From Macrostomum hystrix (lineage: Eukaryota; Animalia; Platyhelminthes), in the NCBI GenBank assembly GCA_950097015.1, contig CATNEN010000001.1, positions 27,094,001 through 27,158,000 of the forward strand: a stretch of DNA of 64,000 nt. Reading direction: 5' to 3'. The stretch's first letter is position 1, and each line of letters opens with the position of its first letter. The position numbers were made by a program, and so were the translations under genes. The notes beneath the pieces are model-generated. The model made no database searches. It saw nothing but the letters and a program-made list of their open reading frames with translations, and was not told where the DNA came from. Shown in pieces: positions 9,101 through 40,550 of this stretch.

Positions 9101-9194
9101 ACTTTAAATAACTGACTTCCCTGTACACCTGGGAACATTCGTAAATACAACTCAACTCGGATTCCTGCGAAATCTACTGCATCTAACTACCACA

Positions 9195-11600: not shown

Positions 11601-11612
11601 AAGGAAGAGGGA

Positions 11613-12419: not shown

Positions 12420-12577
12420 TATACAGTATGCATGTACAAGCGTATACATAAGGAAAATAGCCATGGCATAACAATAACAATGTCAAAGAAACAAAATTAA
12501 ACTGTTTCAGAGTTCAGAGTTAGACAGGTCAAGGTCAATTCGTGACTACTTTTCTATTAATTGCTTGCGAGTCACCT

Positions 12578-17780: not shown

Positions 17781-19315
17781 TTCCTTTAGGTGGTAAAAAT
17801 AAATGTTTGGTTGATGTATGGCAGCATACTTTATATCAACCTCCTTCTTGTTGCGACTATGTATGATTTATCAGTGGCTGAGATTTATTGTTGCTGTACG
17901 AAAATTGACTCAAATGCTTTGACGCTTGTCAGTTTATCAGCGAGTATTATTAAGCGAGTATCTTTTTTATTAGAAATTTATGTGGAAAGAGGAAAAGAAA
18001 AACAAAAGCGTATACGTTCGGAAGTGAAAAAGTATTGTATTTTTACAAAATCTAAATTAAAAAGCATACGAACGAGCGACAGCATATAAAAGGCGGACTC
18101 TGGGTAAAAGGTAAATCTCTAGTCTATGGCCAAGGGTGCGAGTACTATGTCTCATTTGACATAGTTATATTAAGACTGAGGCTATGTCAAAATTGTATAT
18201 AACTTTTAATCTAGAATTTTACTAATACTAGCTTTAATACAATATTGTCTAGATTTTTTTACTTTAGTTCTTCTTAGAGCCAAACGGTGATAAACTTCTA
18301 TTCTAAGTATAGCAAGCGTTATGTTAAAAGGGAAAGGACTTTTTTGAACATCCCTCATTGTATATCTTATTGTTATGTTAGGTCATTACTCCCCGGTGGG
18401 ACACCCGCGCCCAACCCGCGCCTTCCCACCAGTGGCCCCGCTGTACGCCCCACTATACGCCCACCCACCGGTGAGCGGCGGGAAGGCGCATAGTGGGGCG
18501 TACAGCGGGGCCACTGGTGGCCACCAGTGGGGGGCGCGGGTTGGGGTGGGGGGTAAATAAAATTCGGGGCATATCCTCAAAGTCTACTGTTAGTAGAAAT
18601 GTTAGTTTGAAATCATGAAGCCAACTCAGTCGTGTAGGAAATTATTTCTAGATTGATTTTCAATTGAATCCGACTCGATAAACTGTGCTCAAATCTATTG
18701 GGACACCGACGACAGCCATATAGTGTACTGACATAGTCAGAGTTAAGATAAAATTTTCTAGGTGACTTTCCAGGTTAATAAGTTCGAGTGGAAATCATTT
18801 GAAATCATGAAACCAACTCAGTCGTGTAGGAAATCATTTCTGTGGGGGAGATCAGTAGGGTGAAAGGGAGATCAGTAGGGTGAGAGGAAGTGTGGTAGTG
18901 AGATGCAGTAGGGTGAGAGGAAGTGTGGTAGTGAGATGCAGCAGAGTGAGAGGAAGTGTGGTAGTGAGATGCAGTATATTTCGCAGGTATCCGAGTTGCA
19001 TTGTATTTACGATTCTCATCCTGGATTCTCATTTTATATTCTCATCCTAGATTCTCATCCTAGTTTTCATCATAGATTCTCATCATAAAATCTCCAGGAA
19101 GAGAAAGCAGCAGCTCCACGACACCAAGCACGTCAAGAAAGACCAACCGGAAGGCCGTAAAAGTGCAGCGTCTACAGGTCTAAACACAATTATGAGCATA
19201 CGAGCACACATATATTTATGAGCACATGAGCACTGAGCACAACTGAATAACGAAAAATAACGAAACAAGTTCACTAAGTTGACTTGTAATGCCGCATGCT
19301 GTTGCCAGGGGCCGG

Positions 19316-19731
19316 TTACCAAGGACGCCACAAAGGCTGGGCTTTATCCTGATGCTGATGATGCTGCTGCTGCTGCTGATGCTGGTCCATCGACTGGCTT
19401 GATTCTTCGTCAGTAGACAAAGCCGACACCGTTGATGAGGCCGAAGACTTGCAGCAGAAGCTTATGGCCGCAGATTGAGTCTTGGCTGAGCCATTCAGCA
19501 GCAGCTCGACAGTCAGCTCCAGGATTTCGGCCTTCTTAGACGCTGAAGCCGGTACGGTTTTATCACTTTGTTGGCCTTCAGCAGCTGTATGAGTTTTTCG
19601 AAGCTGGCATTAATTCTGGCTCTGCGCTGCCGCTCCATCACCTGCTTGCTGATTCTCCGATGCTCCATCAACTCTTCTGGGCGTGTGGTTCGTCTGTTTT
19701 TTTTTTAATTCGGAGCTCGAAATTTTGCCAT
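19316..19731 (-). pseudogene. hes: Second HES copy, frameshifted
   Basis: Paralogue of 2186-2554 ending QHQQQQQHHQHQDKAQPLWRPW*. 1-bp deletion at ~19537 (CCTTCT-TAG vs CCTTCTCTAG) and an altered 5' end. Could be an assembly error. Confidence 0.8.
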
Positions 19732-20507
19732 CGACCGGCCGCCGCCCGAGTTTATAAGTACACCCCCACCGCCAACCCCCGGCTTCCTGTTTCCTCTATC
19801 CCCGCTTCGCTCGTGAAATGAAGTTTTAGCTGTCATGTTCCGCCTAGATTCTCCCAAATGTGCCTTATCTCTAAAAACAAACCTCATAAGTAAACAAGAA
19901 ATATCACCAATTCTTTGAGGACCTCTCAACAATTAGAGTTCACAAAAAGGCTCGTTTCAGCAAGCGTGTGAATTAAAAATGACTGTCAACACAGGTGGAA
20001 AGGCGGCTTTATTCTGAAGTTCTGACGGGCTTAAAGTTCTCTGAGACGTTGTTCCCTTTGAGATTGCGATTGAGAATGTGACAATTAACTGTAATTGCAG
20101 CAGCATTACATAGTTGTAGTTAGAACTTTCACAGTGTACAGCGCTAATTTCCTACGGCATTGTCAGTCTTGACGCCACTTTGGCTTAACAACAGCCAGTC
20201 AAAAAGTATTTTTGCCCTTCAAAAAGCCAGTCACACAGCAATAGTTAGAAAATCAGAAACATATTTCAGACATAGAATTTGAGAATTACGTTTATTTTGG
20301 CTCGAGCAAATAACCTTTTAAGCTGCAATGCACTGCAAACCTTCGTTTTCACTTTCACTTTCACTTCTCCGTTAAACTGATAGGTAATGCACGTGTGAAT
20401 TTCAAACCGATCAACATATTTTCCTCGCTCGCACTCACTCTCTCTATTGAAATTGCAATAGCGGCAATTCAGCCCGGCTGTGTAGTCTATGGTTTTTTAT
20501 ATAGCGA

Positions 20508-20850
20508 TTCTTATGCAGCAAAAGAGCCCGGCCGAGTCCCCTATGCTTTCTTATGCAGCAAAAGAGCCCGACTCAACCCTTAATGCTTTCTTATGCAGCA
20601 AAAGAGCCCGACTCAACCCTTAATGCTTTCTTATGCAGCAAAAGAGCCCGACTCAATCCTTAATGCTTTCTTATGCAGCAAAAGAGCCCGACTCAATCCT
20701 TAATGCTTTCTTATGCAGCAAAAGAGCCCGACTCAATCCTTAATGCTTTCTTATGCAGCAAAAGAGCCCGACTCAATCCTTAATGCTTTCTTATGCAGCA
20801 AAAGAGCCCGACTCAATCCTTAATGCTTTCTTATGCAGCAAAAGAGCCCG
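20508..20850. repeat. Tandem array of a 40-bp unit (TAATGCTTTCTTATGCAGCAAAAGAGCCCGACTCAATCCT), 9 core copies
   Basis: Core TTATGCAGCAAAAGAGCCCG recurs every 40 bp from 20511 to 20831. Confidence 0.95.
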
Positions 20851-21226
20851 CGACCCGCTTTGCTATAATTCTAAATTGATGACTACTGATAGCAGTTGTT
20901 GCAGTGTTAGGTGCGAGATCGGTTGGCTGATTGAATACATATACCAGTCATGATAATTTTGTTTCAAATGGCGCAGTTGTGACAGCAGCGGAATGCAGTT
21001 CGAACATTCTATGAAATGAGTTTCATGCAGGGTATTATCTTACGTTACATGATGACTGCAGCCCCATGCCACTGCCCGCACCTGAGTTAGGGACCCATTT
21101 CGCACTGTGATGATCGATCGAAATTTTTCCAATATACTGTGGGATATATAGTGACTATAGCGGTATTAGCTAGTGTTAGACGCGTTGCTGCTGCACTCAC
21201 GACATTGTTGGGTGCGTAGAACCACG

Positions 21227-21646
21227 ATGAATGCTCATCCTGTGGCGCTGTTCGGCTCGCCGGCCATCGTGGCACTCCTGGCCAGATGCGACATCGCCTG
21301 CCTGGCCCCGTTCCTGGCGCACCGAGGACGACTGGAGCAGCTGACCTGCCTGCAGCGCCACTGCCCGAATGCTGAGCTGAATGCCACCCAGCTACACACC
21401 TTGCTGAAGAGCCTCCTGGACTGGCTGCTACAACACCAGACAGCTGCGGGCTACGAGACTATCCTGGAGGTGACCTGCCTAACAGAGAACGAGGCTTTCG
21501 ACTTGGCCGAGCTGCTAGGCCTGCTGGAGGACACCTGTTCGGAGCTGCAGCACATTCTACACGGGCTGGACTACCGGCGCGGCGTGCAGCAAAGGGCAAG
21601 ACTGCGAGAGTTGTTCCGGAGTCGCGAATATCGAATGGAGCAGTAG
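21227..21646 (+). CDS. Small all-helical protein (139 aa), possibly CARD/death-fold-like
   Basis: GC-rich ORF in AT-rich context, followed by AATAAA at 21723. Leucine pattern LAPFL..RGRL...LLKSLLDWL...GYETILEV...DLAELL. Confidence 0.5.
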   Translation: MNAHPVALFGSPAIVALLARCDIACLAPFLAHRGRLEQLTCLQRHCPNAELNATQLHTLLKSLLDWLLQHQTAAGYETILEVTCLTENEAFDLAELLGLLEDTCSELQHILHGLDYRRGVQQRARLRELFRSREYRMEQ

Positions 21647-21733
21647 CAGCAGCAAAAAGACTTAGCTACTAGACAGTTAAAATAACTTATCCCTGTTTGT
21701 GAACCCAAACCAAGTCTGCACCAATAAAAGAAC

Positions 21734-23759
21734 CAAGGACCACTGTAGTATAACAGGACGGGAAACTCAAAGATCGTGTAAATTTTTAGAAGGCCGATTT
21801 CCTGGAAAAAATACACTGCGGAGATAGGAAAAAGTCATTTTTTCAGCACATAATCAATTATTGCTTTTGATCTGGAGCAAGTTCAAATCCGTTCATCTTA
21901 GTACAGCATGCCCAACATTAAGCTCCGTTGTTTTTATATAGCTTCGTTTATAAAAGTCTTATTTTCACATATATATATTATATAATAGTGTCTTGAATCT
22001 ATATAGACTATAGACTAGCACATTTAATGGCTCAAAATATGATAGCTAAATATTCTTAATTTGGCCTAAATTGTTTGAATTAACAAATTAGCTAAATAGT
22101 TTGGCAAAACTAACAGCCAAAAAAGTTAACTAATATAACAGTAACTATATAGCTATAAAGGTACAACAAATTTCAAAGTGATTTTAATGCAACTGTAGTG
22201 TCGGCATGTTTTATAATGCGTATATTTCTACTTGTAGTAACTTATTCGCGCACGTCAATATTATGAATTATTTTAATGTATCTTATAGGTTAGTTGTTTG
22301 TACATGCGCACCCCAGCCAGGCCTAACACGCGACCGGCCGGTCACCCCTGCTCTACAGCCAAGGCATCAGACTAGCCCTGGTCTGGTGGGCCCAACCAAT
22401 GGGAGGACGGCTAGCCGATTGAAGTGAACCGACTTAAGTGCGACACCCCGAGCCGGGCCAATCAGCAGCCGGTTCGTTAACCGGCAGGGTCGACCTGGCA
22501 GAAGAACAAGCGGCGCGGCCGGCACCCAGGCTTTGATGAGGGCTGGGGCGGGCGCTTGACTATAAAACTGACTATTGCGCTGAAATATTGTTCTCATGTG
22601 ATTCTGGTCTCGCGTTCGACCTTGCTCTTGCTCTTGATCTTGATATTGTTCTCATTCGTGTTACGCATCCTAGTAAATAGATACCGGGACAGGTAAACCG
22701 GTCCAACTAGTTAGTCAAAGAAAACCCCCACACTCAACCCCACGTCAGTAAGTAGCTTGCGCTGAGCTCGGTACGTCTGGCCAACTGCTGACGGAGTGTT
22801 AGATAGGGATTGGCAAGCACGGAAGCACTCTCCATATCGCCGACAATCATCGGTGGGACGCCGTCGAACAGACATTAGGTGTGGCACGATAGAACTATCG
22901 TTGTGCCATAGTGCAGAAGTGCTTGCTGGTCGCCTCGGTTTTATGTTAGGGATTTTGGTTAGGTTTCGCGTTATTTGTCTTGTTTGTTATAGGGACTATC
23001 TGTTTGTCTAGGATTTATTTGTGTTATTTATCGTGTCGTATTATCGAGTAGAGTTCGTGTTTTGTGTTGCGGTTATCGAGATTTTGTTAGTGCGAATTGT
23101 GAATTGGATTGAATTAAGTACAGTACCTGGCAGGGGACGAAAAGAGCGCTGCCAGGGGAATTGATCAGTGATCATAGCTTTCTCTTATTTACTGATTAAC
23201 ACTTAAATATCAGCTGTTTAGCTTGGGATTTGAATCGTCTTGTCTTCGTTATTTTCGAGTTGCGAAAAGGGAATCTCTCACAAAGAGTAGGACACCCGAC
23301 CTCATTTAGGAATCTCAACGTAAAGAGAGACCTAAGTCAAAATATCACACAACCAAGTAAGTTAATTAATTTTTGGCTGTTAGTTTTGCCAAACTATTTA
23401 GCTAATTTGTTAATTCAAACAATTTAGGCCAAATTAAGAATATTTAGCTATCATATTTTGAGCCATTAAATGTGCTAGTCTATAGTCTATATAGATTCAA
23501 GACACTATTATATAGTATATATATGTGAAAATAAGACTTTTATAAACGAAGCTATATAAAAACAACGGAGCTTAATGTTGGGCATGCTGTACTAAGATGA
23601 ACGGATTTGAACTTGCTCCAGATCAAAAGCAATAATTGATTATGTGCTGAAAAAATGACTTTTTCCTATCTCCGCAGTGTATTTTTTCCAGGAAATCGGC
23701 CTTCTAAAAATTTACACGATCTTTGAGTTTCCCGTCCTGTTATACTACAGTGGTCCTTG
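21734..23759. mobile_element. P-element-like foldback MITE (~400-bp inverted arms)
   Basis: Starts CAAGGACCACTG, ends CAGTGGTCCTTG; 8-bp TSD AAAAGAAC; arms 21734-22130 and 23360-23759 are near-perfect reverse complements. Confidence 0.85.
22194..23349 (+). mobile_element. Solo LTR
   Basis: TGTAGTG...TATCACA with 4-bp TSD CAAC; internal TATAAAA at 22561; related to the LTR at 645-1804. Confidence 0.85.
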
Positions 23760-23834
23760 AAAAGAACTAAGGTGGCAGATCCAACTCGATACCGGGAAGT
23801 TTATTTTGGATAACCTAAAAATAGACCGTATAAG

Positions 23835-23967
23835 AGTACAGTTCGTGGTGCGCGCACAATCCCTAAGAAATATATACATAAGACGATGCGAGGTGCTTAT
23901 CTACCTAAAAATAGCAGGCAAGTCCTTATATATTTTTAAGTAATGTGCGCGCACTATGAACTGTACT
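23835..23967. repeat. ~120-130-bp inverted-repeat module (GTACAGT..GTGCGCGCAC...GTGCGCGCACTATGAACTGTAC); other copies at 28616-28732 and, degenerate, 32152-32253
   Basis: Terminal inverted repeats with TA at the borders (MITE-like); in this window seen only inside the YR-Rep element. Confidence 0.7.
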
Positions 23968-24064
23968 TCTCGCTAAAAGTACACACTATCAACTTAACCG
24001 GGATCCGAATTAACCTAATTAAGCACCTATTAATAGAATCTGAGTCGATCAGTTTAAAACTATA

Positions 24065-24102
24065 AGATCAATATGCGCGCACATGTGCGCGCATATTGAT
24101 CT
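24065..24102. other. Perfect 38-bp palindrome
   Basis: AGATCAATATGCGCGCACA|TGTGCGCGCATATTGATCT. Confidence 0.95.
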
Positions 24103-24323
24103 ACTAGAAGTAGTATAGTAACACTGGTACTATCTGCTGCTCATCCTAAATAGCCTGCTCCTCCTCCTTGGGACGTACTTGGGACTCTATTATTAATAGC
24201 GAATCCCACCCTGTTGCACCCAGTTGAAGTTGAGTACCTGGGACTGCGTTGGCTTTCTGCAGCCTGCTCATTTTCATACATCCAAATTTGAACGCGCCTA
24301 TAATTAACCTGCGGAAGCACAGA

Positions 24324-27124
24324 ATGTCGTTCAACTTTTCAACCGGCTGCGACAGCGACGATGAGCGAATTGCGGCCGCGCTGGACGAGTTTGAGAGAGT
24401 TGCCCAAGATAGTAACTCCGCCGGGCCGGTAGCGTCATCAACTCGCCAGCCACCATCACAGCGAAAAAGAAAGAGCGCTCCCTCTCAACGTCGGATTGTC
24501 AATGCAGCAGCCGCAGAATCTACGCCAGGCCCAAAGCGTATATATACTTTCACCCCAGTGCAGACAGCAGCGGTGGCTAACATCAGCAGCGACGCCGACG
24601 ACTTCAGCCTGCTGCCATTGAGCGGTGTCATGCGCCTAAACACTGGAGAGCAGCAGCCTGCCAGTGACCAGATGTCCACAGGCAATCAGCAGCCACCGCC
24701 TGCCAGTATATCGGCCGTCTACGCGCCCATCTCCCACGCGATGGCAGCCTCAGCCTCGACTGCGCCAAAAGGGAGCATGCTGGCTTGGCTCGGAGATCAG
24801 CACCGGAGTGCCAAGAAGGCCACCAGCAGATGGTCATCGCCGGCAGCGATCAGGCACGTCAGGCGACATGCTCCTGCCAACTGCGGCGATGGCGACGGGG
24901 CGGCGTCTGATGCGCCCGACATGTCCACGGCAGCCCTACAGCCTCGCAGCCCCGTCGTCATCGAGATTGAGGACGTCGACGACGAGCGCGCCGATAACGG
25001 CAGGCCGACAGCGGCAACTCGCACAAAGGCGGAGCCATCGGAGCCTAACGAGCAGGAGGCGGCGATGGATAGCGACGACCGCGATGCTCTGCAGGCACTG
25101 CTGGACTACGAGGCGTCCACCGTTGCGCTGTCAGTCGCTGCAGATCCCCCACCGTCGGGCGCTGATGCGGAAATGGAGGAGGCCGCCAGCACGGTGCCGA
25201 AACCGCCTCAAGTCGCGGCCGACCAACAACAGCAGCCAGGGAGGCGGAGATTCCGTTTCCAGCGGCTCGAAACGACTGCTCCCGCTGTTGCTGCTGCTGC
25301 CGACTGCTCCATTGTGGGCGCCATGGTGCCAGACTCGCAGCCCGATGGCCGACGATTAGCAGTCGCCAAGACCACACCGTCTCAGCGTCCGGAAGATGAG
25401 ACGACGGCCTACGTGGTGTCGCCTGGCACAGCGGCATTCGCAGCAGCCGTGGTGGCCGCTATGAATGAGGCCAGCCAGTCCGTCCCTGTCGGCGAGGAGT
25501 GGTGGCGCATATTAACACCACAGCCGCTGCAGCAACAAGAGCAGGTGCAGCTCGAGCGTCCTCCCTCGCTGGTGCCCTTCAGCTACAGTCCGCCGGCGTC
25601 TGCGGCACAGCTTATTCACTTCCTCCAGCAACAGCAGGGGGACAGCGAGGCGAGCGGGAGCGGGGTCGGCGGCGCCAGAGGACAACGAGGCGGCCGAGGG
25701 GTGCGACGGCTGGGCCAAAATCCGCTGCTTAATGCGGCAGCAGCACAGCAGCAGTTCACTGTGACGCGCTCAGTCAGCCGGCCGCTCGCAATGACCGGTG
25801 CTGCTCCTGCGGAGCGACTGCCCGAGGACAGCGGCATTCTGACCGGGCGCCGCTATTTGCACGTCTTCCACATCGACAAGGTGCGCTTCGTCGGTGAGTC
25901 ACTTGCTTTGTTCATAAGCTCTGAATCATATAACCAGCTGCTGGCATCCACTGTTTCCATGCTGCCTACATAAACAGGTCGTGCCAAAGTATATCTGGGC
26001 GAGGCTCTGGAGGCACACTGTGTCGAGCTCGTCCTGGCGTCCAGCCCGGGCCTCTGCGTCGGCATGGATGAGTTCTGCGACCGGCGGCTAGTCGCTGACC
26101 CGCTCTCCGTCGACGAGATGGAGCAACAGCAGCAGCAGCAGCAGCAGCACAGCGAGTATCGGCCACACCGCACTCTGTCCGGCTTCGTGCGCCTGGAGAC
26201 CAACGCGGCCGGCTGGCATTTGTACGAGCTGCTGTTCAGCCTGCTGCCTAGCCGAGACGAGGGACGCTGCTTTGTGGTGCCCGACCGGACCACCCTGACG
26301 CTGTGCGGCGTCCGCTCGCCAGACAGTGTGCTGCGGAGCCTGACGCAGCACGACGGCTACCCGCTGCTGATCGGGATCGGCGCCACGCAGTGCAGCATGC
26401 TGGTGCAAGCGACTCGGTGGGCGCTGTCCTACCCGCTGACTGCCAACCTGCCAGACCAGACTGACGGCTTCTTGTTGGCCCACCAGCAGATGCGCGCCAC
26501 GTTGCTGGGGGTCTTTAGAGACGTGCAGCGCCAGCGCCGGATTCGCAGGGAGCAGCTCGCCGGCTGTTCCGCATGTTCCACCGAGGCTGCCGACATTAGG
26601 AACCTGTGCCCGCTCCGAGAGGCCGTCTGCACAGCCCTTCGCCACCAGTCGGGCGTTGTGTACCTTTACGGGCCGTCGGGAGTCGGCAAGACCACCGCCG
26701 TCGAGCGCCACCTGGGCCAGGAGCGCGTCTTCTGTCCGGTCATCAAGCGCTTCGGTGGCAATGACTTCATGTTCGACGGCCTGGACACCGCGCGCCACTC
26801 CGTCATCTTTCTGGACGAGGTGCGGCCGCACATGTTCGAGGGCGGCGACCTGGAGACCACGCTGTTGCGCCTGCTGAACGGCAACAGCTTCCTGGTCAAT
26901 GCGAAGCACCAGGCGCACGTCTACCTGGACTGGGGCCAACGGCTGGTGATCGCGGCGATGGCGGCCACGCCTCACCTGACGACTACCCGGCTGACGTGCA
27001 GCGGCGCCTGCGCAACGAGGGCAACACGTGCGTCGAGGTCGACCACGACATCGAGGCCTGCCAGGGGGGGTGCCGCCAGCAGCCAATGTTCGGAGCCGCC
27101 GCCGCCAACGCCCAGGTTGAATGA
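24324..27124 (+). CDS. Rep-like protein: long disordered N-terminus, degenerate HUH domain and SF3 helicase (exons 24324-25893 and 25978-27124; 1-bp frameshift at ~26958)
   Basis: Intron GTGAGT...AAACAG joins the two track ORFs in frame. Walker A YLYGPSGVGKTT, Walker B VIFLDE, B' LLRLLNG...VNAKH. Restoring one A gives motif C LVIAAN and arginine finger VQRRL. Confidence 0.8.
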
Positions 27125-28939
27125 GGCCGCCTTTATATGTCTGTCTGTCTGTCTGTCTATTGCTAAATTATTTCATCCCTGCGCCCGTATTTTGTCTCCA
27201 CCACCATCTTAAAGCGGGTTAGCAGATGTGGGCAGGCAGAAATAGCTAGACGGCCAAAATATTACATAACAAAATATTAGTCCTTATTGGGCTAAATAAG
27301 GAATGGCTTTTGGGTTCGGCTGTTTAACAGCACCATATATTATAATCTATACCTGGCACGCAGTTGCAGAAAACGGGGTAGCAGAAATGTGCGCGGACTA
27401 TAGCAATTTATAAAGCATTAGATGGGATTAGTTTAATTGAATTAAATAGCGCGCAGTGTTTTCCTAGTGTTTTTGTTGCTCGTCAGTCTAGATGTGCTAA
27501 GAGATGGAGATGGCATTTATTACTTGTTCTCAGGATCGCTTCTCGCTCTTATCTGATTGCTTTTATTTTGAGTTCTATTATTTCAGAGTCAATATTTTCA
27601 TTTAGCATATGTCGCAGGCTGTCGAAAATTTCAATTGTCCCCATTTTATTGCCGTTCTACTTTTTCTGTACCGGCTCCATTAAACTTTTTAATCCCTCAC
27701 CGCCAACAAATAGTTGTTGTTGTTGTTGCTGTTGCTGCTCTCCAACAAGTTAGATAGATGGGCAGCTAGAATAATTAACAATGATTGCCTACCTTGTGGA
27801 GCGCAGATAAAAATCACTTTAAACGCAGTCGTCGTCGCTGGGGTCGCAGCTGGAGCGGAGCAATCGGAACAGTGTAGGGGGCAGTCGAAACGAAATAGTA
27901 GATCACGAAGGAGCTGATTTGGTTGATTAATAGAGTTGGTATTGAAAATCAAAGTGTAGCTTGGGAACGATCGAGTCTGTCTTAATCGATTGGCATAGAG
28001 AAATCAATCAGTGCGCGAGCTAGCTCTCTTTGACTTGTGTGCTCAAGATGAGCAATACAGTCCTTCCTGATAAAATTTAGTTTCTATGTGCCTAAGCTTT
28101 GTCTATGTCTTGAGTTTATCGCATTCCTTTATTAATAGTAGTCTAAATATAATTTTACACACACGCAGTTGTTATGTGCTTATTTGGGCGCTATTTGTGT
28201 TATTATAATTTATAATAATTGAGCTATAATAATTTGAGTAAGTATACTAGTATATGGTATGAAAAGCTGACTGCATGCATTAATATGTGAATAAAGGACA
28301 TAAATCAAGAAAAAGCATTCAATCAAGAACTACATGTAGTAGACGGTACGTATGCATATGAAAAATCGGCAATTAACTAATTTAAGATGAAAATCAACAA
28401 GCGGCATCTGCAATAACAAGCAATTAAAATACATGTAGTAATGATGTGTGCATTAAAATACAATTTGGATGGACGCAAAAAGCTATACATATAATATAGT
28501 AGTACGATTTAATAACGGCAATTAACAGCTGCATATAGTGCTACTCAGTTATTTATAGATTTTATATAAGAAACTAAAATTTCAAATTCGCGCTAAATTC
28601 TACGAAATTCAATGTGTACAGTCTGTAGTGCGCGCACATTCCCTAAAAAATATATAAGGCATGTCAGCTCTAATTTTAGAACGACGATCCTTATATATTT
28701 TTTAAGTATTGTGCGCGCACTATGAACTGTACCTAAATCTAAAATTAAATTGCTTACTTGACTACTATAAGTAGAGCAGTTAGCAGCATTTGTTTAGTAA
28801 TTGTCAGATAAATCTATGGCTAATTAAATAATTCTATCAACAAAAACAATAAAGTATAATATTATCAACGGGAGTAATCAGTCAATCAATACAATCAATA
28901 TTCTTAACTATAGCATATAATATCAATTATAATAACATT

Positions 28940-28977
28940 AGCGTATAAAGCGCGCACATGTGCGCGCTTTATACGCT
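28940..28977. other. Perfect 38-bp palindrome with the same 18-bp core
   Basis: AGCGTATAAAGCGCGCACA|TGTGCGCGCTTTATACGCT. Confidence 0.95.
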
Positions 28978-29207
28978 GCAGTAACATGCAGTCAAACGAA
29001 TTCAATTATCCCTCCCTCGAAGGCCTGTGCATGTTTTCTCTGCGTGTTTTCTCTCTGTCCCGGCCCCCTTTATCTGCCCCACGGTGTTTTTCACTCACTA
29101 TTTAAATATTTAATAATATTTTATATTATTAATATAATATAAATTAAATATTTTATATAAAATCTTAAATAAAGCAGGCAGACAGACAGGCGGGCAGGCA
29201 GGGCGAA

Positions 29208-32068
29208 TCAATCAAAATTATGCTCCGCCACTGAGTGCAGCCGCCGTCGCTTTCCGGCCACCGGTCTACCGTGCAGGACTGCGTCGGCTCGTTGGGTGCT
29301 CGCCGCCACCTCCCCACTTCCACCAGCCAGGCTGCTGATGAGTCCCTGGGTCGGCGGCCTAACTATTGGTCGCATCTCTGCGTCACCTGATGGCACCACA
29401 AACCGGCGGACAATATCGCGGCTGCGAATTACTGTGCCCATCTCGGTGGCCATCTGGGCATTGTGCCCATAATTGTACCGGATGACAGCTGCAGATGTGC
29501 CGTGCGCTCTGGCGAACATATCCAGCTGCTCCGGCTCCATCATGAGCACTACGGCACAGAGGGTGCGACGCCAGTGCGTGGCCACATAGTGCCGACCCAG
29601 TACTCGCTGCCCGCCTGCGCTGATCATGCGGCTCATTGCCGACTGGCTGTACACACCGCCGAACACATCAATGAAGACGGTCGGCGACTCCGGTTGCTCG
29701 ATGCCGCGAGCAGCAAGCGACGGCACGATATATTCGTCGTGCAGGCGCAGCAAGGCCTCGCAGAATAGATCCGGCAGCACCATCCTGGCTGGGTCGCCGG
29801 AGTGTCCGACCTTGTGCGGCACTTCACGCAGCGGCAGGACGAGATGCGAGTGCCCAGCCAGATCGGCAGCGGACGGCCCGCTCTCCCCATCTACACTTTG
29901 CGTGTGTTGGCGGAACAGCTGTTTTTGGTCGGCCGACGTGTTTCGCCGAACCGAACGGTCGACCAGGTGTCGCCGACGGATGTAGATCCACGGCAGGAGT
30001 CGCAGGGGCTGCTCAATGCTGCAGTAGAACAGCATCTCCTGCACAATCCTCCGCAGACAAACCATCCGGCGACTGAAGGCACCATCATCTGCTTCGCCGT
30101 TGTCTTTGGTGACATCAGCGATGCCATCAGCGACCACACCTGCTGCCTGCATGCCCCATTCGCCGTCGACTGGCAGCAAAGTCCAGCTGTGCCTTTGTAG
30201 CATGGCAAAAAAACGATCACGGCGGGCGAACACGGCATCGACCTCGTCCACGTTGACGTAGGTGTCCATGAAGGCCACCTGCCGCTCGTTGTGGCCAAGC
30301 TTGTAGACTGCCTGCATAGTATAAATGTGGTTGCGTTTACTTATAGTAGATAGCAGCACGAAACCAAATAGAACTAACTGTCATTAATGCAGCTGCTGTG
30401 CAGCTAGCTCACCTGCTGGATGGCGCGGACGTTGCCGAACTCGCCGCGAGCCTGCTGCACCACGCTGCTAAGGCGGGCGATGAGAGCCTGCTCAGCCGCC
30501 AGCGGGTTGTTGGCCTTCTGCGCCAACTGCATTCTCCAGCAGACGCCACTGCCGACAGAGTCGACGTCCTCAATAGCAGGGCGCTCGGTGTCAGGCGAGG
30601 GTGAGTCGATGCTGCAGAACAGCTCGGCTTCGCGCAAGCCAACGGCGGCCATGATGGCATTGGCGCCTCGCAGGCCCCTCACGCGTAGCCAGCCCTCCAT
30701 GCAGCGGCAGATGCTGACAAGCTCCTGGCACTTGCGCGCAGCAGTCGACTGGGCCAGCTGCATGGCGTCACCGACTGTTTCAGCGCTGAAGCAGTCCTGC
30801 ACCCTGTCCGGCTGAAGCAGCAGGTCTGCAAGCGATATGCCCGCTCGCTGCCAGGTGCGTAGAAGCGTCGAGCTCACGGACCTGCTGATGTCGCGCCAAC
30901 GCTGCTGGTGGCACAAGTTGGCCGCAATCCTGGCCCGCGATGGGTCCCTCCACCATAGCTCCCGCAGGCGTTCCACCGTTGCGGAGATGCTGGGCCGGTC
31001 ACCCAACGGCTGCAGCAGCTCTGGTGGCACGGGCTTCGCAGGTGGCGACGTGCGAAAGTGTCGACAGCGCGGACCGCGACGCTGTTGCTGCTGCTTCTGA
31101 TCGGCTGTCGACGCTTCCTGCTGCAGTTCTGCTCCGAAGATGGACTTTTGAAGCCGGTCGAATTCGGCACTGGCCAGTTTTATCTTCAACGCAGCCCACC
31201 TTGCTGCAGCTGCTCGACGCTGCCTCGGCGGAGTAGCTGCCAGCTTCACTAGCGGCCTCTGTGCAGCCGACACCACAGCCGATGACGTGCTGGGACGATT
31301 AAGCGCCGACTTAGTGGCCTGCACCGCCAACTGCAGACAGGCAGCCGAAGAGGAAGACTCTGCTGCCACCGTATGGACTGTCGACAGAGTCCGCATTCTG
31401 ATGCTGGTTCCGGGCAGTAGCTCCTGCAAGCCGACATCGTCATCTCCATCGTCAGCGTCCTCCTGTGAGGACATTAGCAGCAGCGGCGCAGTCGGGTCAA
31501 ATAGGCGTCGCCGGACGGCTGGACGGCTGGCTGACGACAGCCGAGCACTGGCCGCTGACTGTCGACCGTAAACGGACGGCGCGGCGATGCTGTAGAGCTC
31601 GGCCAACAGAGACCCAGCCTCGTATTCAGCTGGTTCTGCCTCTGAAGGCTGCTGCGGAGGCGGTGGTGGCATCTGCTGCGGAGGCGGTGGTGGCATCTGC
31701 TGCGGAGGCGGTGGCTGCTGGTGTTCCACAGCAACGGTAGCAACAACAGCTGGCACTGCTGGACAACTGTGCTGCCTTGCTGTCCTACGCAGCACCTTGC
31801 CGCAGGCTGGGCACGCATGTACATGCTCAGTGTTGGCTGAGCTGCGCGTGTGGGTGCTGCACGTCAGGCAGAGCCAGACCATCTGGGCACGCTGCTTGGC
31901 TGACGCCGCTGCCCAAGATGCCTCGGACGGCCGCACCTTGACTGGGGCATCATCGAGTCGGAATTGGCGCACAGCCTCCTCCGCGTGCCTCCTCAGGAAG
32001 TGGCGCTTCGGATGCGTCTGCGGTCTGCCGTCGCCACAGAAGATGCAGCACGACTCGTTGTCTGTCAT
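29208..32068 (-). CDS. Tyrosine recombinase (~919 aa) with N-terminal Cys/His zinc-finger-like region (exons 32068-30413 and 30311-29208)
   Basis: A 101-bp phase-0 GTGAG...ATGCAG intron joins the two track ORFs. Catalytic pattern EQPLR (R), PHKVG (K), THWRR (HxxR), ARAHGTSAAVIRYNYGH (Y). The start could be up to 63 nt further upstream. Confidence 0.8.
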
Positions 32069-33198
32069 AGCTATTGTTATTACAAATTGATGCAGTGCCA
32101 TATAGGTGTATGAACTGAATTCAGTATACATGCTCAATCAACACATGCTATGTACAGTCCGTTGTGCGTGCATCTAAATAAATATATATATGCCCCTATA
32201 TCCCATTATGGAATACACTATTTTAAGTGTTGTGCGCGCACATTGTCCCGTACTGTTGTCATCGCTGCTGCATTTATATTCGATTGAGTGCTGCGTTGAG
32301 CACATAAATCACTTATTTTTATGTTGTACCTAACAACAACAACAACAACAACAACATCCTGGCTGTAAAAATTATAAGCCTCTGAATCATTTATAAATTT
32401 TAAAAACATAATTTTTCATTTGCAATGTAGTACAATCAGCTCAGACATTCGATTTTCCAGTGAACAGCACACCCACCCCCTCCAACTCGATCTTCCTCCC
32501 TCAAAAGCAGTGCCGAGCCAGCCAGACAGACCTGCAGATGGAAAGAGAGACGACTTCGATCGTCTTCAGTCTATGGCCACAGGGGTGACATTATCGATTG
32601 GTTAAAGCAGACACACTGCTTCTCTTTTTCAAGGCAGAGCAGTGGCCTTCCACACCCTTTTACCATAGACTATGAATTTAGAGACAGGGCCGCCCCCTTT
32701 CGCTTTCGAAGGTTTAAAGAAAGGGTGGCAAGCAAAGTAGCAGTCTTTTAGTTTTAGCCCGGCCCAACTGCTCGATCGAACTGCAGCTTACAGTCAAATA
32801 TAATTCAGAGATTCATCCACAATTCGAATCAACAGTCTGCCTTCTATTTGCTTGGACTATATTAAAACAGGCTACAGATATAATATCGACAGAGAGCCAC
32901 AGGATCTATTATTATGTCAACAGCAAGCATTAGGATCTAATATATTTCTAGGCAGCTCAGAACTGCATAACACTTACAGAGATTACTAATATATTATAAT
33001 TATAGAGAACTGCATGCGCTATTATCTATTAGATTAACAGACCGATTGTTATATGTATACAAGTACTAATTGAAGGGCCTATTATATATACAAAGACTAA
33101 TCTGAGGGCCTATTATATTAACACAGCTTGTAATGCATATTTATGAACAGATACTTATATGGCCTATTTAAAATACACAGCCTTTTTCTTATTTGCAG

Positions 33199-33810
33199 CG
33201 CAACAGACAGCATCAGCAGAAGCATCAGCAGAAGCAACCGACAGCATCAGCAGAAGCATCAGCAGTAGCAGCAGTAGCAGCTCAGTAGCAGCTCAACAGC
33301 TCTAGCAGCATCAGTACCAGCAGCCAGCCCCATCTGCCCGTGCCCACTTCGAGGTGCAGCAGAAGCAGCAGTACCAGCAGCCAACCCCGTCCGCCTGTGC
33401 CCACTTCGAGGTGAGATAAAAATTAAATTGTACAGCTGGATAGCATTAGTTAGCCTCAGCAACTATATTCGAGTAGACTTTAGCGTCGAAATTATATTCT
33501 AATTGCTTTTTTCCATGCTCATCCTCAGCTCAGTGCAGCTAAACCGGCCGGCACCAGCCAGCAGCATCAGTAGCCGAAGCCAGCCCCGTCCGCCTGTGCC
33601 CATTTGCCAAGCAGCAGCAGTAGCAGCAATAGCAGCACAAGCAGCAGAAGCAGCAGAAGCAGCAGAAGCAGCAGTACCAGCAGCCAGCCCCCGTCCGCCT
33701 GTGCCCACTTCGAGGTGAGATAAATATTCAATTGTACAGCTGGATAGCATTAGTTAGCCTCTGCGAAATATAATCGAGTAGACTTTAGCATAGAAATTAT
33801 ATTCTAATTG
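33199..33810 (+). pseudogene. Degenerate, internally duplicated Gln-rich exons (QYQQPxPSAxAHFE|GT)
   Basis: Acceptor TTTGCAG; donors GAG|GTGAGA repeated at ~33411 and ~33715; CAG>TAG stops. Confidence 0.35.
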
Positions 33811-36390
33811 CCTTTCCGTGTTTTTTGCTTGTCGTCGCTGCCGCCGCCAGTCAAAGTTAAATCAAATTATTGAATGTCATAAGACATAGAGTCTGTGTCA
33901 ATCAGTGTCAATCAGTCAGTCAATCGATCTCGAACGAAACAATACATTCAGTATACTGTACACTGCTGCTGCTCTAATGCAATATCAATAACGAGAGAAA
34001 ATGAGTGCTTGCGAGCAAAGCCATAGAGGAAGCGTGGTCTTCCCAGTTCTAAAAATAGCTGCAGAGCTAGCGCGTGAATTTAAATACACTGTTTACGTTG
34101 TTATAAACGAGAGAAGATGAAAGTGATTTTAGGAAGGCCTTTATGTTCATTTTTTGTCTTAATCTGACTTCCGAATAAATAAATCTAAATAGTAAGCTAA
34201 ATGGAGCAGAACTGAACTGCTGCGCACTGAAATATAAGCGCTATACGAAACTTGCTATGTTTGCGTTTCAATGAGGCCCAAATGGCTCTCCGAAAAGACC
34301 GAATAATGAGTCGAAAAAAGCTGGGCAAAAATCTGAAAATTAGGAAAGTATATTGACAAACTTGACACTGAAATTAATTAAACAAGACGAAATAAATACA
34401 AAGACTCATGAGATTTTTTCCTGCCATTTCTTCACGAAACATAGGAAAAGTTATTTTGCAAAGTTAATTATTGTTTCAAGCATTTATAATTGCTAGGAAT
34501 TTCAGCCATCTCATAATTATTTGAGTTGGCATTTGTATTTAGAGTATATGTTATATGAATATAGCAGCAAAGTGTGTTCTTATGAAGTTTGTGTGTTTTT
34601 AATTATTTATGCACTGTAGCTACAGTTTTTACAGAAGGCACATTTTTTACTATTTTACCTTTAAGTCTCTTATAGCAGCTCAAGTTCTGTGTTTGTCTAA
34701 ATTGGCAAAAATTGAAATGTCAGCTAGGGATAAAAAGAGGGCCTCAGTTTAATCAATATTCATAAAGGCATTCAGAACAAAATTAGCTTATTCACAGTTA
34801 GTCAATCATATCTTTTTGGTTGGCACTCAGCAGGCTGTTGTTGATTGTTGGCCATTCAGCTTCAACACCAGACTCAGATTCTTGGGACTCCTTGTCCTGT
34901 TATATAGGCTCTCCTTGTCCTGTTAGGTGTGAGAGGTAAGACAGTTAGTTTGCTGTTTGTATTTAGATCTATAGCTAGGCAAGAAGGGGCAGAATGCTGA
35001 TAAGAGATGATAGAGGAATGTTGCTCATAGGTTAAATAGGACCACAATTGAGGGAATTACACAGGGCTGGTATTAACTATGTACGGGGCTTGAGCATAAA
35101 TGTATAGTGTCGGGCTAACAATAAAAATGATTATGTACTCAAGCACTTACCATAGCCTTTAATCATTTGTGATTAGTTCTCATATGCACTTAGCTATGCC
35201 ATGAGAGTGAAGACAACCAGATGCCACAATTCCAGCTAGTGAGCCAGTGTGATAAAGACCTGGTAAAATAAAGTTGATAAATAAATAGAGGAAATTTCAT
35301 AGCAAAACTGTACCAGACCAAATAACTCTAGTGTACACTAGGATCACTTATATTGCTTGAAGAAACAAGAAGAGAAGAGGAGAAAAAAGGACAGGAGAGA
35401 AGAGGAGAGGAAAGAAAAGCAGAGGAAAGGAGGGGAGAGGGGGAGAGGAGGGGGGAGAGGAGAGGAGAAGAGGAGGGGAGAGAATTTCATAAACAGCAGT
35501 TTCAAGGCAAACTACTGCTCATGCAGTATCCAAACCAATAGCTCAAGGCAAACTACTGTGCATGCATTATCAAAACTAAGAGCTCAAGCAACCAGCAATT
35601 GTGTGTTAGGTATCTTGGGCTGGGTTGGGCTAACACTAAAAATGATTATGTACTCAAGCACTTACCATAGCCTTTAATCATGTGATTAGTTCTCATATGC
35701 CCTTAGCTATGCCATGAGAGTGAAGACAACCAGATGCCACAATTCCAGCTAGTGGGCCAGTATGATAAAAACCTGGTAAAATAAAGTTGATAAATAAATA
35801 GTCATTATAAAGAAATTTCATAGCAAAGTTATATAACTGTACCAGACCAAATAACTCTAGTGTACACTGGGATCAATTGTTATTGCTTTGCAGGAGCTAA
35901 CCAACAATTTTTGGTTGGGTATCTAGCAAACACTTTACAACAAATGATTAGCCAAGCCTTACCAGTTCTCAGATGCCAGCCTGAAGATAGCAAGCAAAGC
36001 CATCATTCCAGCTTGTGTGATAAGGACCAGTTAAGATGTACTAAGCCTCACTGCAGTTTGCTAAGTTTTTACCATCCTTTTAACTGCTTTCACTTTCTTA
36101 AATCCTTAATTCCTTTCAGGCTCTTTAATTATTTGTAGCCACATTTCACTTTTCTTTCAAGCTTTCAGCTGAATTGCCTCTGACATCATCCATGAGCAAT
36201 GAGCTGCAGCTCAGGAGCATTGAGCTAAAAGCTAGGCTTCTCTAGCTAGTGAAACCAAGCTATACACTTTTACCATCCTTTAACTACCTTAAATCCATTT
36301 GAACATTTTAAACACCCTTTGATACACTTAATTTACTCTTATTCACTTCTACTTTTGCTTTAACTTTACTTATTTACTTTTCAATTTCCA

Positions 36391-36960
36391 GAGAATTATA
36401 TTTAAATATTGCTGAATGGATCACATTCAGCAGCAGCAGCAGCAGCAGCAGCAGCATGTAGGTGGAGTGAGGGCTGGAGTGAAGGTGGAACAGCTGCAGC
36501 AACAGCAGCAGCAACAGCAGCAGCACCCGTCGGGCTTTACGCTCGGCCCACGGCTTTGCAGTGGCTCCTATCCGGCACCGCGTCTTCGTCGCGGAGGGGA
36601 GGCAACGCCCGGCTCCCACCGGGCGGCTAAGAGTGCCGGGACTCGGTCACCGCTCCTCTCCAGGGGGCGGTGGTTGGGGCTCCACCTGGCGGCGGCCTCG
36701 TGGGTCCTTCTTCCTCTGGGAGGCTGGGCCTCGCGGGGTGGCTGCTGGGTTTGGAGCCTAGTCCGTACACAACAACAACAGCAGCAGCAACAGCTGCAGC
36801 AACAGCAGCAGCAACAGCCCAGCAGCCCCTGGGCGCTGCAGCCCACGACGGTCGACAACCAAAAGATCCAGTGGTGGAAGGTGAAGGGAGGGGCCGGGGC
36901 GGCCACCAACTTTACACCGCCAAGGCCCGGTGCCCTCCCCCACCGGCTAAGAAATAAAAA
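36391..36960 (+). other. Paralogue of the polyQ exon at 5747-6102 with a different central segment
   Basis: Same flanks and C-terminal peptide; unrelated GC-rich insert between the polyQ tracts. Confidence 0.35.
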
Positions 36961-39564
36961 GGTTTGTCTAAGCTACCTATTTGTGATACCTTTATTCCTG
37001 AATTCTTAATCCTTAATCGTTAATTCTTTAAATAAGCGCTAGTAGTAAAATTATACCCGTTTGCAGGTGTAAGTTTTCATTGAGTCTGGTAAAACAATAT
37101 TTACCTTTAGCCATTATAGCACCATTTATTAAAATGCGATTGTCACACTACAATGCTAATGCAATATTACAACGTAGCAAAATGTACTCACATTCAATAT
37201 GATTGTAGCCATAATGTCATATGTCGTGTCTTGCCGTGTTCGTGTTTAACCAGAAAATTGCATGAGCCATCCTCCAAGCTTTATAGCAAGTTTATCTGCA
37301 AATTTAAAGAAGCAGATAGCAACTGCGTACGAAGACAAACCCCTCACTCCACATTCATGCTGTCCAATAACAAGCTGCTAACACACCTCGAAACCTCCCA
37401 CTTCGTCATTTCAGATCGCGCATTTGATTTTGTTGCTTCGAATTTGAATTTGAAGATTTTGGAATACATCTTTGCTTGTTGTCTTCCTTTATTTCACTCA
37501 TATTTATTTATTAGCTTGATGCACAGCCTAAATGTTTAGCTTCTTAGCTTTAGCTTAGCATGATTACCAACATATTTATCGAGCACTCCTTGCTTCGTGT
37601 TCCTGAACTTGCTTTGCTTGCCTGCTTTGCTACAATTCGTAGCAAAAGTACATTTTTTCATTTCTACTAACATTTGTACTAAGCTGCTACTAACATTTAC
37701 ACTCCGACCCTTAAGCTGGCTAACACTTAAAAGATTCGCATGCTTACCATCTGACCTCTGTGTCCCTGTAGCTAAGAGTTTGCTACAATTCGTAGCAAAA
37801 GTTCATTTTTTCATTTCAACTAACATTTATACTAAGCTGCTACTAACATTTACACTCCGACTCTTAAGCTAGCTCACTTAAAAGATTCGCATGCTTCCCA
37901 TCTGATTACAGACAATCGTTATAGACAAAGATAAATATGTAAATTGGTTTTGAAACATTCCATATTTTTTCCAGACGTTCTCCATGAACACCTGACGCCT
38001 GGTACACGGTCAGGCGTGTCAAGAAACGGAAGCTGCGGATGACATTGATATTAGTGTCTATTCTAATTCAATCAGCTACTCAGCGTCGAGTAGCAGTTGG
38101 CCCAGCATCCCGGCGAGCTGTATCTGGCCGAGTTTAGCAGGTTAGATAACGATCAGCGACCTTCACGGACTCATGTCATGTCATTGGAGTTCCACGGCTG
38201 CGCTCGCAACAAGGTTGAATAATCTTTTTGTTTTGTTTGTTGTAGTTTATGAAATAATGTGCAGCAACAATTAGTTTATTTATAGTATTTATAAGTAGCA
38301 TTTATATAGCATTTATAAGTACTTGTAGTTATCTCATACTTTTATAGGAAACAGTCTGTTTTAATTACATGTCTTCAAAATCAAGGTTTAATTACAGATG
38401 ATAAGTCATGCATGGGGAATATGAGAAAACACGAGAAAACAGAACAAAACATATCCGTAAGAAAAAATAGTTTTCGTGAGTGAAGTAACGCAACTGAGAA
38501 TCGGACAATCCGTACTTTAATTCTGAGTCATTGTCTGGATCATGTGATTTCTAGGGTATTGTTGGGTAATGTGCATCCCCGCTTCACTCGTGAAATGAAT
38601 TCTGTTCTAGAATTCCTATCTGTGGTTTTAGATGTCATGTTCAGCCTAGATTCCCCCAAATGTGCCTTATCTAAAAACAAACCTCATAAGCAAACAAGGT
38701 AGATTATTTTCTTCGAGGACCTCTCAACAATTAGCTAGTTCTCAAAAAAAACTCCTCGCAACGAGCGTGTGAATTAAAAAATGACTGCCAACACAGGTGT
38801 ATTTATTCTAGCACAGGTAGTGTTACACTTAAAATAAAAAAGCAAGAAAAACAAAACCCAATTCATATTTAATACTGCAGTACACTGCTAGCTGGACATT
38901 TCAGATCTCATACTTGTTTACATGAGTGAAGTAGCGCAACTGACAATCAGACAATCCGTGATGTAATTCTGAGTCATCGTCTATTTGTCTGGATCATGTG
39001 ATTTCTAGGGCAACGTAGGGATTTCTGAGGTATTAATTAAATTATGGGATTTCTGATGACGAATAGAAAATTTACATGAGCATGTTCAATTTTATTTATT
39101 TAAAGTGATTGCCGCTTTATATATACGGCGTGCATACAACAAAATAAAACATACGTATGAAAAGTACATGGTTGTCGTCGGTGTCCCAATAGATTTGAGC
39201 ACAGTTTATCGGGTCGGATTCAATTGAAAATCAATCTAGAAATGATTTCCTGCACGACTGAGTTGGCTTCATGATTTCAAATGATTTCCACTCGAACTTA
39301 TTAACCTGGAAAGTCACCTAGAAAATTTTATCTTGACTCTGACTATGTCTTGTACTATATGGCTGTCGTCGGTGTCCCAATTGATTTGAGCACAGTTTAT
39401 CGGGTCGGATTCAATTGAAAATCAATCTAGAAATGATTTGCTACACGACTGAGTTGGCTTCATGATTTCAAATGATTTCCACTCGAACTTATTAACCTGG
39501 AAAGTCACCTAGAAAATTTTATCTTAACTCTGACTATGTCAGTACTATATGTCTATAAATATAT

Positions 39565-40550
39565 GCTCACCCTACTGCTCTCCCTCTCACCCTACTGCTC
39601 TCCCTCACACCCTACTGCTCTCCCTCTCACCCTACTGCTCTCCCTCTCACCCTACTGCTCTCCCTCTCACTCTACTGCTCTCCCTCTCACCCTACTGCTC
39701 TCCCTCTCACTCTACTGCTCTGCCTCTCACCCTACTGCTCTCCCTCTGACCCTACTGATCTCCCTCTCACCCTACTAATCTCCCTCTCAACCTACTGCTC
39801 TCCCTCTCACCCTACTGCTCTCCCTCTCACCCTACTGCTCTCCCTCTCACCCTACTGCTCTCCCTCTCACCCTACTGCCTTCCCTCTCACCCTACTGCTC
39901 TCCCTCTCACCCTTCTGCTCTCCCTCTCACCCTACTGATCTCCCTCTCACCCTACTGCTCTCCCTCTCACCCTACTGCTCTCCCTCTCACCCTACTGCTC
40001 TCCCTCTCACCCTACTGATCTCCCTCTCACCCTATTTTTAATTCTTGTCCAGTAAATGCTTTTTAGCAGCTGTATAATTTTCAGCTTTTTTACAGCTACA
40101 AAGATCCCCAGTTGACAATGATCTCTCAGTTGACAATGATCCCCCAGTTGACAATGACACCCCAGTTGACAATCATCCCCCAGTTGACAATCATTCCCCA
40201 GTTGACAATGATCCCCCAGTTGACCATGATCCCTCAGTTGACAATCATCCCCCAGTTGACAATCATTCCCCAGTTGACAATTATCCCCCAGTTGACCATG
40301 ATCCCTCAGTTGACAATCATCCCCCCAGTTGACAATCATCCCCCAGTTGACAATTATCCTCCAGTTGAACATGATCCCCCAGTTGACCAGGATCCTCCAT
40401 TGGATGATGACTACCCATATCGATGATGATCCCCAGTTGACAATGATCCCCTATTCGATGATGATCCCCCAGTTGATGATGATCCCCCAGTTGACAATGA
40501 TCCCCCAGTTGACAATGATCCCCCAGTTGACAATTATCCCCCAGTTGAAA
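39565..40550. repeat. Expanded 20-bp and 18-bp subterminal minisatellites
   Basis: Same units as 9195-9720 at higher copy number. Confidence 0.95.

Follow-up and report, generated by a model that had tools for sequence, protein, structure and literature searches.

A predicted, divergent tyrosine recombinase gene in a 13.9-kb insertion of Macrostomum hystrix and its likely role in moving the insertion together with a helicase gene

Does a tyrosine recombinase (YR) gene hidden in the genome of the flatworm Macrostomum hystrix move DNA and, if so, which DNA? The question was raised by a stretch of 64,000 nucleotides (assembly GCA_950097015.1, contig CATNEN010000001.1, positions 27,094,001 to 27,158,000; hereafter called the window), in which a first-pass annotation had recognised such a gene from the letters alone. 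Two elements are added here to that observation: the gene lies within an insertion of 13.9 kb, and the same insertion contains a gene for a superfamily 3 (SF3) helicase. The YR is a real and probably intact member of a divergent family. With a probability of roughly 0.6, it mobilises the surrounding insertion, which would then be a Crypton- or Starship-like YR transposon with its own helicase gene. The coordinates of all features are collected in Table 1.

The YR gene had been proposed to consist of two open reading frames (ORFs) joined over a 101-nt intron at IQQ/AVYKLGH, and coordinates, strand and joint all proved to be exact. As the two exons are in different frames, either splicing or a frameshift is required. 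The predicted intron starts with GTGAG (donor at 30412) and ends with TATGCAG (acceptor at 30312), and it has a GC content of 0.41, whereas the exons have 0.64 and 0.61. One relative, P0005, spans the exon joint in a single frame (residues 391–687, E 1e-29), and the M. lignano protein P0013 aligns to residues 2–914 with 22% identity (E 4e-34). The predicted splice is thus supported both by sequence signals and by relatives. The spliced frame encodes 919 amino acids with the terminal stop as its sole stop, in agreement with the intact frame reported earlier. Exon 1 starts with two zinc-finger-like clusters (approximately residues 7–103), followed by a low-complexity linker and by a conserved helical stretch (approximately residues 390–465) which is the predicted core-binding domain. 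From the N-terminal cysteine clusters pointed out in the first-pass annotation, CxxC...HxxxxH and CPAC were recovered in the alignment with P0013 (pairwise E 1e-4), while the middle one, CLTC, remained unaligned.

The assignment of the C-terminal domain to the tyrosine recombinases was confirmed at the level of prediction, as Atlas, Foldseek, VIA and hhalign all agree on this fold. In the Atlas feature search, the cluster at rank 1 had a score of 0.97 (PF00589 in 17% of its members) and the one at rank 3 a score of 0.96 (79%), with a eukaryotic cluster without family at rank 2. Folding of the single sequence was uninformative (pLDDT 32), and the structure searches were done with a model obtained from a 7-row alignment. 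The top four rows of Foldseek against the PDB were XerA and a staphylococcal integrase, with XerH also among the top rows (best E 0.29), and against viral models they were phage integrases (best E 0.036). With VIA (48,161 chains), rows 1–6 of 50 comprised four recombinases plus two topoisomerases of type IB (Z 5.1–6.3, rmsd 4.8–5.9, 147–185 residues aligned), scores that fall under the tool's warning that a Z below 8 can reflect a common arrangement; in a second look, rows 1–8 of 18 were all YRs. Using hhalign, the YR family profile was aligned to a profile of phage integrases of the GTS type, described below, at 93.6% with E 2e-7. Since the structure scores are weak when taken singly, the weight rests on the agreement between methods. 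The YR fold (DNA_BRE_C superfamily) is therefore stated as a prediction, based on language-model features, on structure searches for which the model was weak, and on the alignment of profiles.

The DNA that the YR could move was delimited by a segmental duplication within the window, where the segment 2106–9949 is repeated as 19239–20418 plus 34359–40782. The homology ends at 20418 and restarts at 34359, and both points correspond to position 3378 of the first copy. As break and restart fall on one and the same point, about 13.9 kb of DNA are present in one copy only. The flanks of this insertion match the empty site on both sides (left flank and 3040–3378, 86%; right flank and 3378–3453, 96%). 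The right junction is bridged by a contig of sequencing run X1, and a loose end at 34362 in run X2 carries flank letters resembling the empty site. A circle junction was seen in no contig, in stretches that did not include the left end. When the two ends of the insertion are joined, a 6-bp arm, a 6-bp spacer and a second 6-bp arm follow each other. Among 4000 random pairs of positions with similar composition, 5 had a direct repeat of at least 5 bp together with arms of at least 6 bp; this test was framed after the ends had been seen. All in all, we consider it rather probable that the YR made this insertion.

The duplicated segments themselves (2106–9949 and 19239–40782) show 75–98% identity, and each copy contains several different nested repeats. 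In the duplicated flank (34421–35961), stretches of 231 and 703 bases bounded by CT..AC are left out by contigs of runs X5 and X7, from which we infer a spliced minus-strand transcript and an RNA-like nature of both runs. Over the YR intron, runs X5, X6 and X7 had no contig, which speaks neither for nor against the splice. The insertion is located about 70 bases past the end of these spliced contigs.

Whether the enzyme could be active depends on residues that had been read as an R...K...HxxR...Y pattern. Of the family rows that cover them, all 4 keep R656 and K719, and all 6 keep R800-R801, T824-S825 and the second tyrosine, Y833; the seventh row, P0005, stops short of this region. The R, K, R and Y of the pattern thus stood, and the histidine did not: H798 of HxxR, like the histidines of HGTS and YGH, is found in only 1 of 6 covering rows. 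The earlier register was probably off by one, with R800 as the catalytic arginine and T797 at the histidine position. The profile alignment favours R800 and the usual 22-residue spacing fits R801 better, both arginines being invariant. The first histidine column reads T/Y/M/T/T/S when R800 is taken as the arginine and H/D/D/D/T/D with R801, and conserved histidine is seen in neither case. The second column, where His or Trp is usual, contains Thr in 6 of 6 family rows. Judged from these alignments, both canonical histidine positions of the YR are likely occupied by Thr.

This likely loss of both histidines would suit a gene of another kind, namely a catalytically dead, domesticated DNA-binding protein of YR fold fixed at its site in the manner of the Crypton-derived ZMYM and KCTD1 genes. 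The X1 contig across the right junction has the same flank as the window, and a second, near-identical insertion site was not seen, which also fits a fixed gene. In contrast, domesticated DUF3504 genes have lost the tyrosine and the second arginine (PMC3212892), both of which are retained in the YR family, and the paralogous segment does not carry the insertion. Domestication is thus considered very improbable.

The first-pass annotation had further taken HGTS...YGH, in place of the usual motif, as a mark of bacterial or phage integrases. For comparison, 56 viral-contig loci were picked by the GTS motif, giving 52 usable frames of which 43 were distinct, and 120 viral-contig loci with the LGHS motif gave an ordinary set of 63 frames (59 distinct). 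All 43 GTS frames scored against the ordinary integrase profile (E 1e-25 to 0.011), and integrases with GTS...HY are therefore real, as had been proposed. The alignment by hhalign pairs R656, K719, R800, T824 and Y833 with R, K, R, T and Y of the GTS-type integrases. The YR family profile reached the above-mentioned 93.6% with this type versus 42.4% with the ordinary GHS type; once the selected motif was excised, the values were 33.0% and 42.5%, respectively. The existence of such integrases was hence borne out, whereas the supposed kinship was not, as no special likeness remains without the motif. At the level of sequence, the motif is common to the YR family and to GTS-type phage integrases, and descent from them is unsupported. 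Both have Thr for the second histidine, a residue other than His at the first position and nine residues from Thr to Tyr, and the R-R pair is present in 4 of the 43 GTS-type integrases. In 41 of the 43, Tyr occupies the first histidine position, and integrase sequences in which both histidines are changed thus occur in nature. Unlike these enzymes, the YR is encoded by a gene with an intron and zinc fingers. Searches of phages and plasmids gave no real match to the YR, and no relative was found in prokaryote genomes. Among the 43, the phage integrases of loci L138, L146, L149 and L166 (FRRT...GTS) show the nearest motif match to the YR family.

Relatives of the YR were searched with full HMMER in 1.84 billion representative sequences (cut-off E 0.001). 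Seven were obtained, three from JGI/IMG, one each from ENA and Logan, and two M. lignano clusters. The latter comprise 7 near-identical UniRef entries in total, labelled as Ras-GEF or C2H2 domain proteins, which may stand for gene copies, for alleles or for redundant models. A0A1I8G604, A0A1I8GN39 and their cluster members belong to the YR family, P0013 being apparently full length. Proteins of M. lignano are the closest named relatives of both the YR and the helicase gene. In run X1, contigs of 2.8 kb carry diverged pieces of the YR gene and of the helicase gene, one of them internally deleted; the element family has thus further members. Pfam gave no match for the YR protein or 10 relatives, the family profile hit one chance row only among PDB sequences, and word-indexed sequence searches with exon 2 returned nothing at near or longer lengths. 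None of the 5 exact translations from the window was present in the protein collection, Rfam gave 0 matches, and no YR/helicase locus was detected in the scanned viral contigs. A metagenome hit (L003) covering 44 residues only was judged spurious, and two helicase hits in prokaryote genomes were limited to Walker A and are not true relatives. In the literature, no account was found of the YR family or of a capsid-less animal element with YR and SF3 helicase; Repbase, Dfam and subscription journals were outside this coverage, so that a database entry is possible.

Read from the left, the insertion contains a tandem array, an ORF of 139 codons, a nested element and the helicase gene, towards which the YR gene is oriented; repeats rich in CAG come last. 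Exon 1 of the helicase gene encodes a long low-complexity N-terminus, and exon 2 an SF3 helicase of the CRESS (circular, Rep-encoding single-stranded DNA) type with Walker A and Walker B motifs. A relative with 71% identity exists in M. lignano. The C-terminal domain resembles Atlas clusters of PF00910 (0.93, 200 shared features), with a recognition value below the threshold of the tool. Against a profile of 31 CRESS Reps drawn from 124 loci, the helicase domain aligned at 96% (E 3.5e-9), which places it in the CRESS type, and its score of 15.5 with the CRESS helicase hidden Markov model compares with a maximum of 2.6 in 300 shuffles. Upstream of the helicase, no HUH domain was detectable at profile level (0.4%, E 0.16, below the shuffles), nor with the Pfam Rep models. 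A degenerate HUH domain had been suspected from one stretch resembling motif II, but the profile of the 31 CRESS Reps did not support it, though a degenerate fold may still be present. It is also rather probable that the helicase gene travels in the same unit as the YR.

A virus-like helicase next to a YR could also mark what is left of a DNA virus that integrates by a YR (Polinton-like or MELD type), or a satellite of one, in either case without capsid and mobile only with a helper. Polinton-like viruses can indeed hold a YR together with a primase-SF3 helicase, and the two can co-occur in MELD viruses (PMC4642659). The helicase found here is however of the CRESS type, both main genes have introns, and the ends of the insertion are not long inverted repeats. 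Only three coding-like genes are present; outside these and the nested element, the insertion contains no ATG-started frame longer than 83 amino acids, and consequently no capsid gene was found. Neither packaging ATPase nor polymerase was found in the insertion, and there is no room for such frames. A viral remnant is therefore improbable.

Further support for a common unit comes from palindromes around the two genes. The window has five copies of GTGCGCGCAC, all of them inside the long palindromes P1, P3 and P5 (23848–32232) and flanking both genes, while 0.04 copies are expected per window from 100 first-order random sequences. Two of the four perfect palindromes of at least 16 bp in the window are S1 and S2, each coming after a long palindrome. 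With their fixed core and variable arms, they have the sequence features of retained candidate binding sites. The 18-bp core of S1 and S2 was also found in 6 viral contigs, none of which encodes a relative of the YR or of the helicase. The long palindromes P1, P3 and P5 end in TA-CAGT, a trait of miniature inverted-repeat transposable elements (MITEs) of the Tc1/mariner type, and a P3-like stretch (28676–28788) was found in unrelated contigs of runs X5, X6 and X7.

These last two observations would be expected if the locus were a YR transposon of Crypton-like type whose helicase gene, orphan gene and palindromes stem from unrelated elements, as passengers that nested in it or were captured by it, namely an endogenous fragment of CRESS-like type and MITEs of the Tc1/mariner type. 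One nested element is already present inside the insertion, and the linkage of helicase and YR is known from this locus only. On the other hand, GTGCGCGCAC is restricted to 8.4 of the 64 kb and flanks the helicase gene as well as the YR gene. S1 and S2, each perfect and exactly 38 bp long, have a common core but unlike arms, a pattern that would not result from decay. The helicase gene contains an intron, and its GC profile is the same as that of the YR gene. Captured passengers are accordingly an unlikely explanation of the whole, if still one to be reckoned with. Palindromes that are perfect and keep one core between varying arms also resemble the targets of telomere resolvases, and the YR might act on the 38-bp palindromes to free a hairpin-ended linear replicon with the helicase, the insertion having been made otherwise. 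A ResT/TelK cluster appeared at rank 26 in Atlas (0.93, only 128 shared features) and TelK at rank 22 in VIA (Z 4.3), but integrase and Xer rows outrank TelK in both, the ends of the insertion look like a conventional YR site, and no Pfam match of the YR to the ResT/TelK catalytic domain was obtained. This possibility is given very little credit.

The reading of an element mobilised by its own YR has to be weighed against several observations, in addition to the reservations attached above to the VIA scores and to the test of the ends. Exon 2 had no match in Pfam, PHROG, NCBIfam or PDB sequences. The YR model has a mean pLDDT of 52, with model residues 101–180 below 50; it gave no Foldseek match at E 0.001, no single structure match was significant, and the single sequences of lambda Int and Cre reached 0.2% in hhalign. 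Since both histidine positions are likely Thr, the predicted activity of the YR is uncertain. The 5-bp repeat alone occurred in 513 of 4000 random pairs and is thus weak, and the terminal arms measure 6 bp compared with 11–13 bp around a 6–8-bp spacer at usual YR sites (PMC3212892). The right flank is about 7 letters longer than the empty site, which makes the right boundary uncertain by some bases. A single insertion site was seen, and the YR gene lies 2.3 kb inside the nearest (right) end. MITEs that came in as passengers may account for the long palindromes. In the window copy, the helicase frame is broken near 26950–26975; contigs of X1 and X7 show gaps relative to the window over this break, so it may be private to the window copy or an assembly error. 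Finally, no second locus with helicase and YR together was seen: the relatives are unlinked proteins, and no true relative came from the scans of viral contigs, metagenomes and prokaryote genomes.

Cryptons carry terminal direct repeats of 4–6 bp and were proposed to be excised as circles (PMC3212892). Like them, the present element is eukaryotic, encodes a YR without reverse transcriptase and has a short terminal direct repeat without long terminal inverted repeats; this end structure was seen at one site and is weak alone. Unlike in Cryptons, the YR matches neither DUF3504 nor any other Pfam family (CryptonA, F, I, S and V were compared by description and Pfam scans), the R-H-R-Y tetrad is likely not retained, its histidine being unconserved, and the element measures 13.9 kb and includes a gene for an SF3 helicase. 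Neither PMC3212892 nor PMC13465315 uses the word helicase. Starships are mobilised by a YR, carry extra genes and combine a direct repeat with a terminal inverted repeat (PMC10104507), as observed here at one site. The YR however has no DUF3435 match and likely lacks the histidine of the RKHRY pentad, the orphan ORF comes first from the left and the YR last, at the distance from the right end given above, instead of the captain-first order, the host is an animal, and the element is far smaller. The helicase domain resembles that of CRESS Reps, and the protein differs from the Reps encoded by CRESS-DNA viruses and pCRESS in having no detectable HUH domain. Helitrons combine HUH with an SF1 helicase. 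Replitrons possess HUH without helicase (PMC10288648); a legend of that paper names SF1B for Helitrons, and it describes no YR for CRESS, Replitron or Helitron. As to Polinton-like viruses, capsid proteins, packaging ATPase and long terminal inverted repeats were not found here, and in contrast to DIRS, Ngaro and VIPER elements no frame for reverse transcriptase or RNase H exists within 20416–34354.

For an element moved by its own YR, the following mechanism is proposed. At each end the YR, aided by its zinc fingers, would attach to the short inverted arm, and strand exchange within the 5-bp direct repeat would release a circle, which would reinsert at a similar AT-rich site. Catalysis would rely on R-K-R-Y and dispense with the usual pair of histidines, as appears to be the case in phage integrases of the GTS type. 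The helicase would unwind the circle at the palindromes, and host enzymes would copy it. This last part, in which the helicase loads at the palindromes and the excised circle is copied with host polymerase and without an HUH nicking domain, is a tentative proposal that may well prove wrong. More doubtful still is the full picture of a self-replicating, capsid-less integrative element of animals, where a new YR clade without catalytic histidines would excise a circle of 12–14 kb and a CRESS-derived SF3 helicase without nicking domain would copy it from palindromic origins.

Table 1. Positions of the insertion, its genes and repeats, and its empty site, counted from the first letter of the window.
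Feature	Position	Strand	Remarks
Whole insertion	20416..34354		Direct repeat to direct repeat, 13.9 kb; comparison of duplicated segments
Left end	20416..20425	+	5-bp direct repeat 20416–20420, 6-bp inverted arm 20420–20425
Right end	34342..34354	+	6-bp inverted arm 34342–34347, 5-bp direct repeat 34350–34354
Empty site in paralogous segment	3372..3385		Flank alignment
YR gene, exon 1	30413..32068	-	552 codons, ATG at 32068; zinc-finger-like clusters, low-complexity linker, helical stretch
YR gene, predicted intron	30312..30412	-	101 nt, GT-AG; relatives aligned through joint
YR gene, exon 2	29208..30311	-	367 aa and stop; predicted catalytic domain
YR, predicted catalytic residues	R656 30002, K719 29813, R800/R801 29570/29567, Y833 29471	-	Profile and family alignment
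YR, predicted histidine positions	T797 (His-I), T824 (His/Trp-II)	-	Profile alignment
Helicase gene	24324..27124	+	Exon 1 24324–25893, 84-nt GT-AG intron 25894–25977, exon 2 with SF3 helicase
Long imperfect palindrome P1	23836..23966		TA-CAGT ends; GTGCGCGCAC in each arm
Perfect 38-bp palindrome S1	24065..24102		18-bp core
Long palindrome P3	28616..28732		73% like P1
Perfect 38-bp palindrome S2	28940..28977		18-bp core of S1, other outer arms
Degenerate long palindrome P5	32152..32253		Upstream of YR start codon
Subterminal tandem array	20508..20850		40 bp x 8.6
139-aa orphan ORF	21227..21646	+	Coding-type bias, GC by codon position 0.69/0.40/0.76
Nested passenger element	21734..23759		390-bp terminal inverted repeats, 8-bp target duplication

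Among the remaining content of the insertion, the 139-aa orphan ORF gave no family in family searches; it may have a death-fold-like pattern. The nested element, which we take to be hAT-like, is non-coding, and its inner part (about 22190–23350) resembles a further nested repeat. It is missing from one X1 contig (joint 21725–23760) and is thus polymorphic in X1. Between the helicase and YR genes, a 104-codon frame (27689–28003, minus strand) with a CxxxCxxC stretch shows weak coding bias and no family. The CAG-rich stretch at 33200–33850 consists of 157-bp direct repeats, each ending at a GT donor-like site (33411, 33715), and these are possibly small exons of a fourth gene. Elsewhere in the window, Gypsy-like integrase fragments (rve and Integrase_H2C2 of Pfam) were found at 10257–13500 and 60291–61985, a 361-bp direct repeat at 1095–1454 and 9952–10309, and a Pif1-type helicase fragment, probably Helitron-derived, at 62758–63531. 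Long AT-rich open frames (471, 646, 231 and 276 aa) without Pfam match are located at 44992–50334 and 41366–42196; the 646-aa frame presumably resembles a CACTA-type transposase.

With no Pfam match and with wrong labels in UniRef, the YR family has probably been overlooked in repeat annotation. In the sources available, the YR-only DNA transposons of animals described so far are Cryptons, and the multi-gene YR elements are fungal Starships and capsid-bearing viruses. A multi-gene YR element of animals with a replication-type helicase would bridge Cryptons on one side and Starships and capsid-bearing viruses on the other, and it would show that a CRESS helicase was recruited without a recognisable HUH domain. 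If the self-replicating version proved true, the element would correspond, in eukaryotes, to the integrative plasmids of bacteria and would define a new class II group beside Cryptons, Starships, Helitrons, Replitrons and Polintons.

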